Positions 42,028-44,846 of a stretch of DNA of 64,000 bases are shown here, piece by piece (position 1 is the first letter of the stretch; each line of letters begins with the position of its first letter). Source of the stretch: a virus; IMG/VR virus record IMGVR_UViG_3300045988_129191, positions 1 to 64,000 of that record. One strand, written 5' to 3'. Under the pieces are notes generated by a model. The model was given only the letters and a program-made list of their open reading frames with translations, had not been told where the DNA came from and searched no databases. The translations under genes were made by a program, and so were the position numbers.

Positions 42028-43455
42028 TTGATGATAGAAAATAATGATAAAATTTACTTTACAAATATAACATTATTTACTACAGCTTTGTGTAATCTTA
42101 ATTGTGGATATTGTTATATTTGTAAAGATGCTACTGGATGTTTAAAACAAATAGATGATGACCTTGCAAAAGACTTTGAAGAAGGAAGTCAAATCAAACA
42201 GGTATATGCTGTAGATCCAGAAGCAGACAAACATATTAAACATATTACTTTATGGGGAGGAGAGCCTTTCCTTCATCTGGAACGTTTTATAGACCATTTT
42301 GAAGAATACTTAAATGCTTTTCCAAACTTTAATGAAATAGATACTTCAACAAATTTTACTCTTCCAAATCAAATTGAATCTTTAAAGAAAATGTTTGATG
42401 CAATTATTAAACATTATCATGGTAATAAAAAATTTCATTTTGATCTTCAGGTCTCAATTGATGGGCCTGAAGAGATGAATGATTTTGGAAGAGGTAAAGG
42501 AGTTACTCAAAAATTCTTAAAGAATTTTAGAGATTTGTGCGAATTAGAATTTGATGATTCTAAAATTGATTTATTCGTTCATACTAAACCAACTTTTTCA
42601 AAACCTACATTTCATTTTGTAGATACACCAGAAAAAGCATATGAATGGTTTGAATTTTTTGATAAAGAAATGTATCAATACTATAAAAACAGAAAAACTA
42701 AAAAATGGTTTTTCTTACCATGTCTTTTTAATTATGCAACTCCAGCAGAATGGACAAAAGAAGATGGGCTTGAAGTGGCAAAAATCTATCGTTCAATTCA
42801 AGAAGTAACACCAAAAATAAAACAATTGGATGGATGGATTCCAAACTATGAAACATATATTCCAGGCGTAGAATTTTTATTAGGTAGATTAAAAGACGAT
42901 AATTCATTTAATAAAAAGAAATGTTTAGATTGTTCTAAGCCGTTCTGCGGCGGAGGATGTGGTTCATTTTCTCATGTAGTAGTTCCTATTCATGATGGTA
43001 AATATACTATGTGTCATAGAGGTATGTTTGATGATTATGTTGACTATCATAACAATATGAAAGACCATGCTGATATGAATGGACTTGCCGCAAAATATGT
43101 TCAAACAAATAATGAATCTGCTTGGATTTATGATAAAGACCAATTCTTAAATCTTAAAAAGACTTTTGATAATCTTATTTTATATCCTCATCAAATTTTT
43201 TATACAGATTATGTTAAATTCGTATATGAATATGCAAAAGCAGGTATCATTGATGAAAAATGGACTGATATGAGTAAGATTGATAAAACGGTAGCTATTT
43301 TCGTTGATAAATCATGTTGTTTACAAGATTCATATATTATTACTGGCTCTTGGATAACATCAAATCCATTAGAAATTCCATTGTGGTATAATGGAGCTAT
43401 GGATGTGGTTGAAGAAGAAATTGACAGAATAATGGCGGAAAGAGGTATAGTATGA
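42028..43455 (+). CDS. Radical SAM enzyme with C-terminal SPASM domain (anSME/peptide-maturase-like), copy 1
   Basis: CNLNCGYC (CxxxCxxC) at aa 22-29; C-terminal CLDCSKPFCGGGCG (Cx2Cx5Cx3C). Confidence 0.85.
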   Translation: MMIENNDKIYFTNITLFTTALCNLNCGYCYICKDATGCLKQIDDDLAKDFEEGSQIKQVYAVDPEADKHIKHITLWGGEPFLHLERFIDHFEEYLNAFPNFNEIDTSTNFTLPNQIESLKKMFDAIIKHYHGNKKFHFDLQVSIDGPEEMNDFGRGKGVTQKFLKNFRDLCELEFDDSKIDLFVHTKPTFSKPTFHFVDTPEKAYEWFEFFDKEMYQYYKNRKTKKWFFLPCLFNYATPAEWTKEDGLEVAKIYRSIQEVTPKIKQLDGWIPNYETYIPGVEFLLGRLKDDNSFNKKKCLDCSKPFCGGGCGSFSHVVVPIHDGKYTMCHRGMFDDYVDYHNNMKDHADMNGLAAKYVQTNNESAWIYDKDQFLNLKKTFDNLILYPHQIFYTDYVKFVYEYAKAGIIDEKWTDMSKIDKTVAIFVDKSCCLQDSYIITGSWITSNPLEIPLWYNGAMDVVEEEIDRIMAERGIV

Positions 43456-44846
43456 CATTTCAAGAGCAGCAAGATTTACTTTTAGAAAATTATTTATTTA
43501 GATATGATAAAGATGAAGCTTCTGTTGAATTTATCATTACATCTATATGCAACCAAAAATGCGAGTATTGTTATTTATATAGATACGGTAATGAGATGTA
43601 TCCTCCAGAAGCCAATAAAAAAGAAAACATTCTTAGAAATTTAGCATTGTTGTTAGATTGGTTAGATGAGAATGGATATAAATATACAACCTTTGATATT
43701 TTCTCAGGAGAATTTTTTCAGATTCCTTATTGGGAAGAAATCTTAGATGTTTTTTATGAGCATCAAATAAACACTCCTAATATTCCATCAAGAGATTTTG
43801 TTATTCCTACCAATATGTCTTTTCTTATGGATGAAGAGAAAACTGCAAGAGTCGAATATTGGATAAATAGAGTTAGAAATGATACAAAACATTTTAATGG
43901 CTTTTGGTTGAGTGCTTCAGTAGATGGACCAACAGAATTAGAATCTGTTGAAAGAGGATTAAGAAACGGTCAAACGAAACAAGATTCATTTTATGATAAA
44001 TTTTTCAAGTTTATTGCGAAGTATTCTTTTTCTTGTCATCCTATGATTACAAAAGAATTTGTTAAAGATTATAAACGTAATTATGATTGGTGGATTGATA
44101 ATCTTATTAAATATAATGCTACATTTAAAAAAGAGAATGGATATGAAGTATGCTCAATTCCAATGATGTTAGAGGTTAGAAATGCAGAACAATGGGATAA
44201 AGAGTCTTTACAAAATTATAGAGATTTTCTTTTCTATGTAGCAGAAAAAGATTTGAATACACTTCATAAAGGAGATTTAACTGATTTTGCATATCATATG
44301 GCAGATAACTTCTCTGATGGAATGATGAATATTGGAACATATAATCATGTGCAGCCATATATATTAGCTCTTCCAGAAGTACAACATAGAATGCCATGTT
44401 CAATTCAAGGCGGTACAATTTTCAGAGTTGGAGATTTAGCAGTTGTACCTTGTCATAGAACTTGTTATCCAGATAAAGTCTATGGATTCCTTAAATTAAA
44501 TAAAGACAAAACTAAAATTGTTGGGGTTTATGGAGAAAATCCTATGCTTGCATATAAGATTAAAACTATTAATCAGAATCGTTCTTTTATGAAATGTGCG
44601 GGCTGTCCTATTAAAAGCTTTTGTATGAAAGGTTGTTTAGGAGCACAATATGAAGATAGAAAAGAATTATTTTGTGCTATCGACGAAGTGTGTGAGATGT
44701 TTAAAACTAAATATCGTACTGTTAATGATATAGCTGAAAAATATGGCGTTTATGATATTATTTTAAATGATTTAAAAATCTCAAAAGAGAGAAGGGAGTT
44801 CATAAAATATGCAAGAGATATTATCAACAGATGCTTGTATGACTGA
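43452..44846 (+). CDS. Radical SAM enzyme with C-terminal SPASM domain, copy 2
   Basis: CNQKCEYC near N-terminus; C-terminal CAGCPIKSFCMKGC; ATGA overlap with copy 1. Confidence 0.85.
   Translation: MTFQEQQDLLLENYLFRYDKDEASVEFIITSICNQKCEYCYLYRYGNEMYPPEANKKENILRNLALLLDWLDENGYKYTTFDIFSGEFFQIPYWEEILDVFYEHQINTPNIPSRDFVIPTNMSFLMDEEKTARVEYWINRVRNDTKHFNGFWLSASVDGPTELESVERGLRNGQTKQDSFYDKFFKFIAKYSFSCHPMITKEFVKDYKRNYDWWIDNLIKYNATFKKENGYEVCSIPMMLEVRNAEQWDKESLQNYRDFLFYVAEKDLNTLHKGDLTDFAYHMADNFSDGMMNIGTYNHVQPYILALPEVQHRMPCSIQGGTIFRVGDLAVVPCHRTCYPDKVYGFLKLNKDKTKIVGVYGENPMLAYKIKTINQNRSFMKCAGCPIKSFCMKGCLGAQYEDRKELFCAIDEVCEMFKTKYRTVNDIAEKYGVYDIILNDLKISKERREFIKYARDIINRCLYD

Follow-up and report, generated by a model that had tools for sequence, protein, structure and literature searches.

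To our knowledge, radical SAM/SPASM maturases are found almost only in bacterial gene clusters for small exported peptides. In the QhpD/QhpC system, a radical SAM-SPASM enzyme cross-links a protein subunit (QhpC, the gamma subunit of quinohemoprotein amine dehydrogenase) and not a small exported peptide, and the oxidation of an aromatic residue is separate. TigE is a cyclopropylglycine synthase with a repetitive precursor, TigB, whose repeats are of a TVGG-like type. The Twitch domain is a truncated SPASM-like C-terminal domain with a single auxiliary [4Fe-4S] cluster, which involves the hairpin Cys and one or two further Cys. UbiU/UbiV, RlhA and TrhP are Fe-S proteins of the Peptidase_U32 family, all linked to O2-independent hydroxylation. 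UbiU and UbiV reportedly form a heterodimer. We know of no protein-directed U32 enzyme, O2-independent hydroxylation being tied so far to quinone and RNA substrates only.

Several of these systems are the closest described parallels to the locus presented here. CteB, PapB and Tte1186 are radical SAM-SPASM maturases of ranthipeptides or sactipeptides that form thioethers. In CteB, the auxiliary-cluster Cys are C344/C362/C400/C403/C409/C413/C432, and in CteB, PapB and Tte1186 the AC1 cluster, with three Cys ligands, binds the cross-linking Cys or SeCys (PMC10177961). TigE, a SPASM enzyme, acts on numerous repeats within one precursor, TigB (PMC10878394). UbiU and UbiV are two U32 Fe-S proteins, both of which are needed for prephenate-dependent O2-independent aromatic hydroxylation (PMC10990095).

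Here we characterize two adjacent radical SAM genes, RS1 (the first copy) and RS2 (the second), carried by a 64,000-nt stretch of DNA of a large phage from an oxygen-free habitat (the window, meaning this stretch in its entirety), together with related loci, designated by L numbers. They are part of a cassette made up, from 5′ to 3′, of the genes for a small acidic protein, the putative substrate, RS1, RS2, an acidic protein, U32a and U32b (Table 1). We consider, with moderate confidence, that this is a conserved phage cassette whose catalytic core, RS1 and RS2, matures the upstream protein by cross-linking into a product associated with the virion or tail fibre. The RS1-RS2 cassette is apparently undescribed so far: full-text literature searches and a jumbo-phage comparative review (PMC7824862) gave no description of it, and searches with the cassette (blastn) and with RS2 (tblastn) against 50,697 GenBank phage records gave no match and hence no cultured relative.

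Table 1. Features of the cassette and its 3′ boundary in the window.
Feature	Coordinates	Strand	Description
Small acidic protein	40371..40745	+	124 aa, pI 4.4; frequent neighbour of the substrate gene
Putative substrate	40760..42001	+	413 aa, pI 9.7; directly upstream of RS1
RS1	42031..43455	+	radical SAM, predicted Twitch-like C-terminal domain, no N-terminal RRE; listed ORF start TTG 42028
RS2	43452..44846	+	radical SAM, canonical 7-Cys SPASM domain with CteB-type Cys spacing, no N-terminal RRE
Acidic protein	44809..45492	+	227 aa, pI 4.3, poorly conserved; overlaps the end of RS2
U32a	45524..46315	+	263 aa, Cys-rich paralogue of U32b; hhalign to the U32b (p332) family
U32b (p332)	46302..47300	+	332 aa, putative distant Peptidase_U32 relative; family matches to PF01136
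Intrinsic-terminator-like hairpin	47961..47987	.	bidirectional, 12-bp stem, T-runs on both strands; closes the + block

RS1 and RS2, a tandem of dissimilar radical SAM enzymes

The tandem recognized in the first-pass annotation is real and comprises ORFs at 42028-43455 (475 aa from a TTG) and 43452-44846 (464 aa) on the plus strand. That these are genes and not chance ORFs follows from their 82 (RS1) and 112 (RS2) homologue clusters and from AlphaFold2 models with a mean pLDDT of 86 and 95, respectively. The true start of RS1 is more likely the ATG at 42031 (474 aa) than the TTG at 42028, because a Shine-Dalgarno sequence, AAAGGAG, is located at 42018-42024, 6 nt 5′ of this ATG, and because the cluster representative P0113, which is 95% identical to RS1, has 474 aa. 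The tight packing of the genes is equally clear: GAAAGAGG precedes an ATGA (43452-43455) in which the RS1 stop overlaps the RS2 start. RS2 terminates with a TGA (44844-44846) which, as had been noted, falls 38 nt inside the next ORF, counted from the ATG of that ORF at 44809; an alternative in-frame ATG at 44839 would shorten the overlap to 8 nt.

Both proteins belong to the radical SAM superfamily, as judged by a CX3CX2C motif, which binds the SAM-cleaving [4Fe-4S] cluster, a GGE-type SAM-binding motif and matching folds. The motifs are C22/C26/C29 and WGGE (76-79) in RS1, C33/C37/C40 and F84-x-G86 (SGE) in RS2, and they are invariant in the 36-sequence family alignments. Pfam PF04055 matches RS1 with 32.2 bits, above the cut-off of 29.5, and RS2 with 23.4 bits, below it; the matches in NCBIfam, Pfam, PHROGs and PADLOC are generic radical SAM ones. 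Neither protein has an N-terminal extension of the size of an RRE, the PqqD-like domain for leader recognition, CX3CX2C beginning at residue 22 in RS1 and at residue 33 in RS2, compared to about 104 in CteB.

The C-terminal region of RS2 includes seven invariant Cys (C316, C334, C382, C385, C391, C395 and C414) which fit the SPASM pattern C-x(9-18)-G-x(4-6)-C ... C-x2-C-x5-C-x3-C ... C. A regular expression for this pattern matched all of 107 full-length RS2 homologues, and the SPASM/anSME-like layout originally attributed to both proteins therefore stands for RS2. TIGR04085 (SPASM) scores only 16.6 bits, under its cut-off of 27, and Pfam gives no SPASM match. The spacing of the seven Cys (18 / x2-x5-x3 / 19) is identical to that in CteB, PapB and Tte1186, which implies that AC1 has three Cys ligands (predicted to be C316, C334 and C395) and an open site, and AC2 four (predicted to be C382, C385, C391 and C414). 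Among PDB sequences, CteB is also the best match of the RS2 profile (E=6e-8), and Foldseek ranks it first for both models, the top matches of RS2 being CteB, anSME, ChlB, TigE and SuiB. A further likeness to CteB-type systems is that the putative substrate contains Cys. Since the seven-Cys pattern is generic, it is only suggestive of thioether formation by RS2. The two proteins fall outside the PapB/CteB-type maturase family, with PapB HMM scores of 45.9 (RS1) and 17.5 bits (RS2) for a cut-off of 340, and a GggB HMM score of 57.5 bits for a cut-off of 650. Unlike CteB, PapB and Tte1186, RS2 always has another radical SAM enzyme as its partner, and the putative substrate is a 413-aa protein devoid of CX3D-type motifs.

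RS1 does not share this layout, and for this protein the earlier assignment does not hold: no CX2CX5CX3C follows the beta-hairpin. Invariant Cys in its family are limited to C311, C329 and C431, with C307 present in 69% of 36 aligned members and a CX3C immediately preceding the hairpin in 59 of 79 relatives. RS1 of the window carries an extra CX2C (C299/C302), and the full upstream CxxC...C...C pattern is found in only two of the 79. These conserved Cys point to one predicted auxiliary cluster of the Twitch-like type and not to a canonical SPASM domain. The loss of the AC2 Cys raises the alternative that there is one true cross-linker and that the other enzyme, probably RS1, carries out non-cross-linking chemistry such as epimerization or dehydrogenation, or contributes substrate binding or electron transfer within an RS1-RS2 heterocomplex. 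Strict co-occurrence and gene overlap are compatible with such a complex, and the lack of an RRE in both proteins means that recognition must come from elsewhere; we nevertheless hold this arrangement to be rather improbable and favour cross-linking by the pair.

RS1 and RS2 differ markedly, as had been remarked, with 24% BLASTP identity over 152 aa (E=2e-4). Their description as paralogues is correct at the superfamily level and not beyond it, as the cross-profile scores indicate: the RS2 profile gives RS1 proteins at most 49 bits and CteB 35 bits, while the RS1 profile gives RS2 proteins at most 26 bits and ChlB 31.5 bits. By profile comparison, RS1 and RS2 are an old obligate pair whose mutual distance is no smaller than that to the known peptide maturases. 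An origin by recent gene duplication is rejected on the same scores.

Both enzymes belong to the structural group of peptide- or protein-modifying SPASM/Twitch enzymes, in agreement with the initial proposal. Their top structural matches are ChlB, anSME, CteB and TigE, and a clear gap separates their nearest solved structures, which are peptide/protein-modifying SPASM enzymes, from other radical SAM enzymes. TigE is among the top four structural matches of RS1 and also matches RS2, with sequence similarity confined to the radical SAM core and, unlike TigB, the putative substrate has no TVGG-like repeats. Neither protein resembles a housekeeping enzyme, since every NCBIfam score is far under its cut-off (27 vs 349 bits for anSME, for example); with all curated-family HMM scores this low, the chemistry of RS1 and RS2 is not transferable by homology. 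They do not group with the three-residue cyclophane (triceptide) enzymes XyeB, GrrM/OscB, FxsB, YhhB and AmcB (NCBIfam score/cut-off of 36/445 for YhhB, 20/310 for GrrM, 19/450 for XyeB and 19/370 for FxsB) and, in contrast to ChlB and other cyclophane enzymes, RS1 lacks a second set of auxiliary-cluster Cys and the putative substrate is a large protein. Nor do they belong to the QhpD, PqqE or MftC families. QhpD is the best NCBIfam match of RS2, in the SPASM region (E=3.5e-6), but scores 26 bits for a cut-off of 453; the QhpA/B/C/G context is missing and the system is phage-borne, with two radical SAM enzymes.

The anSME similarity requires separate consideration, as RS1 and RS2 might be ordinary anaerobic sulfatase-maturating enzymes, which convert Cys or Ser to formylglycine, acting as auxiliary metabolic genes. 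Three homologues are labelled "sulfatase maturation enzyme AslB" by JGI and anSMEcpe is among the top structural matches. However, TIGR03942 gives RS1 27.3 bits for a cut-off of 349 and does not match RS2, no sulfatase gene occurs at any locus examined, RS1 is without a second auxiliary cluster, and RS2 has seven conserved Cys instead of the reported eight Cys ligands of anSME (attributed to Goldman et al., 2013). This explanation is scarcely credible.

The upstream protein as a putative substrate

The protein encoded 5′ of RS1 has a conserved N-domain (residues ~1-125) which ends ...EQACRE. Residues 126-413 are 51% N/S/T/G and 19% F/Y/W/H and include seven of the eight Cys of the protein; five of the seven are invariant among close relatives, C170 and C388 being replaceable. 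Its C-terminus is YTVEGVDF. It belongs to a new protein family, which as a whole shows this three-part architecture, with a conserved N-domain of ~125 aa, a hypervariable middle rich in Asn/Ser/Thr/Gly with aromatic residues and Cys, and a C-terminal VEGxDF. A search with the N-domain alone retrieved 28 proteins among 1.84 billion representatives; full-length matches have the same architecture and most end [FY]x[VI]EG[ILV]xD[FL]. In both members of this N-domain family whose contigs were examined, RS1 is immediately 3′. Family members have 300-670 aa in most loci. Some are very Cys-poor, and the substrate-like protein of L030 (170 aa) carries two Cys. Neither the window substrate nor the small acidic protein has any match in NCBIfam, Pfam, PHROGs or PADLOC.

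The N- and aromatic-rich repeats described in the first-pass annotation are repeats in composition and only loosely repeated, with NRSG[FY] present three times; tandem repeats at the DNA level do not occur in the window, where TRF found no real ones in the substrate gene. The L013 orthologue does carry repeats, of 66 and 72 nt. Twelve close variants of the window substrate are all 413 aa long with zero indels, and in their repeat region the share of invariant positions is 83% for Phe, compared to 31-46% for Ser/Thr/Ala/Lys/Asp. Small polar residues thus differ among close relatives, whereas aromatic residues and most Cys stay in place, the pattern expected if these are modification sites or structural.

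A polar, aromatic and Cys-containing ORF is located immediately 5′ of RS1 in most loci. From this adjacency, conserved across highly diverged loci, we infer that RS1 and RS2 very probably act on the upstream protein, which lends support to the earlier suggestion that the low-complexity protein is their substrate. The N-domain and the VEGxDF motif would probably be handles for recognition or assembly. Two distinct enzymes on one substrate is the natural reading, and it is plausible that they would divide the work, one taking the aromatic repeats and its partner the Cys tail.

An alternative is that the product is released and RiPP-like (a bacteriocin, a signalling peptide or a host-manipulating factor), the N-domain being a long leader that is cleaved and the repeat region the active part. 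A precursor plus maturases is the typical layout of RiPP clusters, a conserved leader with a hypervariable core is a RiPP hallmark, and L027 has four substrate-like ORFs, all short (103-239 aa), which share an N-terminal helix and look like precursor genes. In the window, moreover, the cassette is not in the structural block. The loci nevertheless depart from a classical RiPP cluster: a gene resembling that of a precursor, with a conserved N-region, does adjoin the maturases, but it encodes 300-670 aa in most loci, the 413-aa protein itself being far larger than usual RiPP precursors, and no protease, transporter/exporter or immunity gene was seen in any locus examined. The size of the substrates, their conserved C-terminal motif and the indel-free clade suggest a folded or assembled protein, and the cassette repeatedly adjoins tail-fibre genes. 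We therefore judge a released product to be unlikely, although it deserves more weight than the other alternatives discussed here, and retain a virion-associated protein as the more probable outcome.

Companion genes and the U32-like pair

The cassette has further members beyond those in the first-pass annotation: two acidic proteins, of which the small one is encoded 5′ of the substrate, and a pair of U32-like paralogues. The small acidic protein has a 107-aa homologue in L013 (phmmer E=2e-7); L034 has a similar small ORF (103 aa, with an "SxKYT" motif) adjoining the substrate gene, and L030, L058 and L059 have small ORFs of similar size there (121, 107 and 114 aa, respectively). At the other end of the enzyme pair, RS2 is always followed or overlapped by an ORF. 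The acidic protein of the window in this position has a homologue in L013 (E=5e-4), and the corresponding ORFs have 180 (L027), 117 (L030), 241 (L034), 134 (L035), 204 (L036) and 233 aa (L059). It has no informative family match in NCBIfam, Pfam, PHROGs or PADLOC and may be a chaperone or escort of the basic substrate.

U32a can be aligned with the p332 family by hhalign (probability 95.6%, E=1.3e-8, 201 columns) and has four conserved Cys (C179, C182, C188 and C208) in a three-sequence alignment, with orthologues in L013, L035, L036 and L059. U32b has 212 homologues and four invariant Cys (C158, C189, C193 and C221), with an E-x-L-x3-I-C-x3-C-P stretch. PF01136 is matched in 11 of 32 aligned U32b homologues, of which one alone, the best (26.2 bits), exceeds the cut-off of 22.4, and another link to this family is a homologue labelled "collagenase-like PrtC family protease" by JGI. 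The U32a and U32b proteins of the window have no Pfam match, and the U32b profile matches neither PDB sequences nor an NCBIfam U32 subfamily. The pair was detected by HMMs in only some loci. Like UbiU/UbiV, it consists of two adjacent paralogous proteins with conserved Cys and a U32-signature-like stretch, in an anaerobic setting; unlike UbiU/UbiV, RlhA and TrhP, its homology to the family is very remote. U32a and U32b are possible anaerobic hydroxylases, which synteny connects to RS1 and RS2.

The window contains no terminator-like site between 40466 and 47960, and the cassette itself has no intrinsic terminator. A promoter scan yielded 53 sites compared to 51 in shuffled sequence, which is no better, and no tRNA genes were found in the window.

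Genomic setting, proposed mechanism and meaning

In all 12 loci scanned with HMMs, RS1 precedes RS2 in the same orientation, as it does in L035, L036 and L059, at identities as low as ~25-30%. The two genes usually overlap or are a few nt apart, and abut in nearly all loci examined; the exceptions are L027, with a 76-aa ORF between them, and L043, with a gap of ~1.6 kb. L040 holds two RS1-RS2 pairs. Cassettes are carried by contigs of uncultured large phages (~120-480 kb), some of which have recoded stop codons. In species-representative genomes, the only full-length relatives are on contigs of MAGs assigned to Clostridium, Peptococcaceae, CPR bacteria or Nanohalarchaeota, which are probably mis-binned phage contigs. 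Phage-encoded NrdD/NrdG indicates an anaerobic host. The cassette is bordered directly by tail-fibre genes in L013, L027, L030 and L036; in the window, such genes are encoded a short distance away on the other strand.

The cassette of the window comes after nucleotide-metabolism genes, with NrdD/NrdG, dUTPase and RuvC preceding it, outside the structural block, and in L027 genes for KDO-type sugars are close by. This would suit a non-protein substrate, such as phage DNA to be hypermodified, a nucleotide or a sugar, with the low-complexity neighbour unrelated, and phages are reported to use radical SAM enzymes in DNA and nucleoside chemistry (PMC8989533). The recurring neighbour is, however, the low-complexity protein and not a nucleotide or sugar gene, the nearest structures modify peptides or proteins, and matches to viperin and QueE are limited to the SAM-cluster motif. 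We regard a non-protein substrate as highly improbable. A defence-system origin was also considered and is rejected, the viperin matches spanning the SAM-cluster motif only.

In the mechanism we favour, RS1 and RS2 would each use SAM-derived 5′-deoxyadenosyl radicals to abstract H from side chains of the substrate, leading to intramolecular cross-links. Our best guess is that RS2 would form Cys-derived thioether links. RS1 would form a second type of link, most plausibly aromatic C-C (cyclophane-type) bonds or further thioethers, and aromatic rings may be hydroxylated by U32a and U32b independently of O2. The matured protein would probably be rigid, protease-resistant and associated with the virion or tail fibre of a phage of an anaerobic host. 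A more specific version, which we offer as speculative and rather unlikely, is a hitherto unrecognized class of virion-protein maturation in which the Twitch and SPASM enzymes add thioether and aromatic C-C links and the UbiU/UbiV-like U32 pair hydroxylates the rings of Phe/Tyr/His in the absence of O2, possibly to DOPA-like groups. On the same speculative footing, the product would be a hypervariable tail-fibre-associated adhesin or fibre of large phages of anaerobes, hardened post-translationally. If true, a U32 hydroxylase would for the first time be directed at a protein, and a structural protein of a phage would for the first time be cross-linked by radical SAM enzymes.

Many uncultured large phages carry an invariant pair of enzymes tied to a family of large proteins that diversify rapidly. 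If the upstream protein is cross-linked, RiPP-type chemistry would come to include phage proteins several hundred residues long, the two enzymes would be a tractable pair for multi-site protein stapling, and a likely host-interaction molecule would have been identified whose variable region is constrained at aromatic and Cys positions. The U32-like pair would provide a testable candidate for protein-directed, prephenate-dependent anaerobic hydroxylation.

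Organisation of the cassette

The window comes from a large dsDNA phage of about 31% GC, and IMG/VR holds near-identical contigs of 118-196 kb. It carries replication genes (topoisomerase II subunits, NAD-dependent ligase, RecJ and a DnaE-type polymerase) and further encodes an anaerobic ribonucleotide reductase (NrdD/NrdG), dUTPase, RuvC and a 2048-aa tail fibre. Eight tightly spaced + strand genes lie between RuvC and a hairpin which resembles a bidirectional terminator (see the table); a scan of the window found no terminator inside the cassette. The last of the eight, encoding a 194-aa protein, was left out of the cassette because its homologue in L013 (one of the related loci on other contigs, all numbered in this way) is located elsewhere.

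Features of the window in and around the cassette
Feature	Coordinates	Strand
124-aa acidic protein	40371-40745	+
413-aa basic protein; Asn/Ser/Gly- and aromatics-rich region, Cys-containing tail	40760-42001	+
RS1, radical SAM enzyme	42028/42031-43455	+
RS2, radical SAM enzyme	43452-44846	+
227-aa acidic protein	44809-45492	+
263-aa protein (U32a)	45524-46315	+
332-aa protein (U32b)	46302-47300	+
194-aa protein	47371-47955	+
Hairpin, perfect 12-bp stem, T-runs on both strands	47961-47987	between convergent + and - gene blocks
140-aa protein	48803-49225	-
256-aa protein	49297-50067	-
2048-aa tail fibre	51562-57708	-

The coordinates and lengths given to both radical SAM genes in the first-pass annotation are correct. 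Its 38-nt overlap of RS2 with the following ORF was also confirmed, and is 8 nt if an alternative in-frame ATG is used. The RS1 stop and RS2 start are combined in an ATGA. The more probable RS1 start is the ATG at 42031, 6 nt before which lies an AAAGGAG Shine-Dalgarno sequence.

The RS1-RS2 pair is obligate and its order is strictly conserved. In a family HMM scan, RS1 preceded RS2 on the same strand in all 12 loci (the window, L013, L027, L030, L034 and L037-L043), and the same arrangement is found in L035, L036 and L059. The two genes mostly overlap or are a few nucleotides apart; they stand further off only in L027, with an intervening 76-aa ORF, and in L043, with a gap of about 1.6 kb. 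L040 has two pairs, and L034 includes a second RS1 paralogue of 447 aa. In the loci inspected, RS2 is always trailed by an acidic, poorly conserved ORF. An aldo-keto-reductase gene occurs within the cassette of L034 (11538-13925), where it is fused with ferredoxin-type Fe-S domains, and of L036 (6234-7187); a dedicated role in supplying or accepting electrons is conceivable.

Some otherwise intact, alignable homologues of the cassette genes contain in-frame stops: all ORFs around 6377-10963 of L032, 1715-3730 and 3750-5231 of L035, and 1046-8000 of L036. It thus seems that some of these phages have recoded a stop codon and follow an alternative genetic code; in the window, table 11 gives clean reading frames. 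L032 also encodes, just downstream of its RS1-RS2 pair (11002-12756, -), a YcaO-domain protein of 584 aa, again an enzyme of RiPP-type modification.

Two radical SAM enzymes of different architecture

Both RS1 and RS2 are radical SAM proteins, and neither leaves space for an RRE domain at the N-terminus. Homologue searches returned 82 clusters for RS1 and 112 for RS2, nearly all unnamed and located on metagenomic contigs that reach 200-480 kb. The first-pass annotation had described the two as paralogues sharing an anSME-like SPASM layout. Paralogy holds in the superfamily sense and no further: BLASTP gives 24% identity across 152 residues, and hhalign aligns the core alone (E=1.3e-12). The RS2 profile gives RS1 proteins at most 49 bits and CteB 35, while the RS1 profile gives RS2 proteins at most 26 bits, below the 31.5 of ChlB. 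Judged by these scores, RS1 and RS2 are separate orthologous groups, kept distinct across very divergent phages.

The SPASM layout is that of RS2. A 36-sequence alignment shows C33/C37/C40 and exactly seven more invariant Cys (316, 334, 382, 385, 391, 395 and 414), and a 7-Cys SPASM regular expression matches all 107 full-length homologues. The spacing of these residues (18; x2, x5, x3; 19) is identical to that of CteB, whose auxiliary clusters are bound by C344/C362/C413 (AC1) and C400/C403/C409/C432 (AC2); in the CteB group just three Cys bind AC1, for which direct contact with the cross-linking residue has been demonstrated in PapB and Tte1186 (PMC10177961). The AlphaFold2 model of RS2 is confident (mean pLDDT 95), with Foldseek matches to CteB, anSME, ChlB, TigE and SuiB. 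Among these, ChlB is a multiple-cyclophane synthase (PMC12912966) and TigE forms cyclopropylglycine on a repeat precursor (PMC10878394). One RS2 homologue, P0099, is 809 aa long and has Hint/intein-type domains (PF14623, PF14528, PF01079). This copy is apparently interrupted by an intein, a hint that the RS2 gene matters to the phage.

RS1, also modelled with confidence (mean pLDDT 86), keeps C22/C26/C29 and the WGGE motif. Towards the C-terminus the invariant Cys are limited to C311, C329 and C431, C307 being present in 69% of aligned members. Of 79 relatives, 59 have a CX3C immediately ahead of the hairpin, and only two have the full upstream Cys pattern, which the extra C299/C302 complete in the window. 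A pattern scan of RS1 and its relatives found no CX2CX5CX3C after the hairpin. Since RS1 keeps the ligands for one auxiliary cluster, it is predicted to be Twitch-like, and it is not a canonical SPASM enzyme. Counting the SAM-cleaving cluster, three Fe-S clusters are predicted for RS2 and two for RS1.

No curated NCBIfam family fits either protein: every match is confined to the core and far under its cut-off (bits/cut-off: GggB 57.5/650, PapB 45.9/340, anSME 27/349, QhpD 26-28/453, XyeB 19/450). By this comparison neither enzyme groups with housekeeping enzymes that have non-peptide substrates, the outcome which the first-pass annotation had named as refuting its reading. From their sequences both enzymes are catalytically intact as well as architecturally different. 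That they are ordinary anSMEs is scarcely credible. It is quite unlikely that the pair comprises a single true cross-linker and a partner with another chemistry or a scaffolding role.

A variable protein family upstream of RS1

The ORF directly before RS1 is in most loci rich in N/S/T/G and in F/Y/W/H, with some Cys; L027 has four short ORFs of this type. Common to them is an N-terminal helix matching I-x-[AS]-x-[IM]-x-x-[LY]-x-x-x-[ILV]-N-x-x-R-x-x-x-G, and a later helix often has a Cys at its end, just ahead of the low-complexity part. A search of 1.84 billion representative proteins with the first 125 residues of the 413-aa protein gave 28 matches. Almost all full-length matches have three parts: the N-domain, a variable tail of 150-350 residues (40-55% N/S/T/G, 15-25% aromatic, 2-12 Cys) and a C-terminal motif, [FY]x[VI]EG[ILV]xD[FL]. 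RS1 lies immediately downstream in both matches whose contigs were inspected, and one of these, L059, has the whole gene order of the window from NrdD through the U32-like pair. By these sequence features the neighbouring proteins form a conserved family, variable in the middle and with a recognisable handle at either end.

Twelve close variants of the window protein are all 413 aa long and align without indels. Of the Phe positions in the repeat region 83% are invariant, as are five of seven Cys positions, against only 31-46% of Ser/Thr/Ala/Lys/Asp positions. This fixed size and pattern of conservation argue for a constrained region, probably structured or modified, and not a disordered spacer. 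In the orthologous gene of L013 (5620-6279), true tandem repeats occur with periods of 66 and 72 nt, encoding units of 22 and 24 aa (e.g. ATFFNGVNYTYFATHCSNYCNPKY), and the variable region is therefore able to expand by repeat duplication.

We consider it likely that the RS1-RS2 pair modifies the upstream protein, which would be the shared substrate of both enzymes. A non-protein substrate is very unlikely beside so constant a protein neighbour. RS2, with a CteB-type open-site AC1, would join a Cys sulfur to the carbon of another residue, and RS1 would form a second type of link, the best guess being aromatic C-C cyclophanes, because ChlB is its nearest neighbour and the aromatic positions are conserved. 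This specific division of chemistry is doubtful. The acidic proteins (pI 4.3-4.4) may escort the basic substrate (pI 9.7).

The U32-like pair and the tail-fibre setting

U32b has 212 homologues; Pfam Peptidase_U32 is matched by 11 of 32 aligned members, with the gathering score exceeded in one case, and JGI annotates one homologue as a PrtC-family protease. Four invariant Cys lie inside a U32-signature-like stretch. U32a is its paralogue (hhalign 95.6%, E=1.3e-8). The pair also follows the radical SAM pair in L013, L035, L036 and L059; L040 has one U32-like copy downstream of its pair and L030 a weak candidate upstream. U32 proteins are Fe-S proteins: prephenate-dependent, O2-independent hydroxylation of aromatics requires UbiU/UbiV, and RNA hydroxylation has been linked to RlhA and TrhP (PMC10990095). 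Finding two such paralogues beside an aromatic-rich protein, in a phage of anaerobes, points to protein hydroxylation, though by remote homology and a link of synteny only; the pair may add hydroxyl groups.

The tail fibre of the window ends in a C-terminal module (...AVWNDYAE...GRVL.Y.Y...RIWIKVK), probably an intramolecular-chaperone or autoproteolytic end. The same module type occurs in fibre genes directly upstream of the cassette in L013 (163-4668) and L036 (1046-1729), and tail-fibre-like genes with a related ending adjoin the cassette in L027 and L030. The product would be a cross-linked virion- or fibre-associated protein, a role that we propose tentatively, at somewhat less than an even chance. 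A released RiPP-like effector, a reading to which a maturase adjoining its precursor would lend itself and the fibre genes less so, is unlikely.

Other neighbours also recur. The 256-aa protein has a Gly/Trp-rich hydrophobic N-part and Cys clusters (QQCCCQ... and a C-terminal NCGCSTL); with the adjoining 140-aa protein it is kept beside the cassette in L013, and it alone also in L032. Both match PHROGs of unknown function. On L027, a phage contig of about 260 kb, DAHP_synth_1 (KdsA-like), transaldolase and CMP-KDO-synthetase-like matches (14851-17034) adjoin the cassette and are followed by the baseplate gene GPW_gp25; the near-identical L028 and L029 have Tail_P2_I. The DAHP-synthase-like gene may either make KDO or supply the shikimate/prephenate route. 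L030 (12646-14708, -) and L034 (4490-7699, +) carry a second, separate system, in which a radical SAM-SPASM enzyme of anSME-like type (458 or 560 aa) stands next to a 227- or 243-aa protein made up almost wholly of C-x-x-C / G-C-S-G-C repeats, perhaps a further kind of phage protein with cross-links. In L030 this system adjoins a short tail fibre.

GenBank phage records hold nothing similar to the cassette, and full-text literature searches and a jumbo-phage genomics review yielded no description of it. The enzyme class and the general logic of a radical SAM maturase adjoining its precursor are already known. What appears to be new is the obligate pairing of a Twitch-like with a SPASM enzyme, the large, hypervariable, three-part family of putative substrates, the link with a U32-like pair, and the setting of all these in phages, beside tail-fibre genes.
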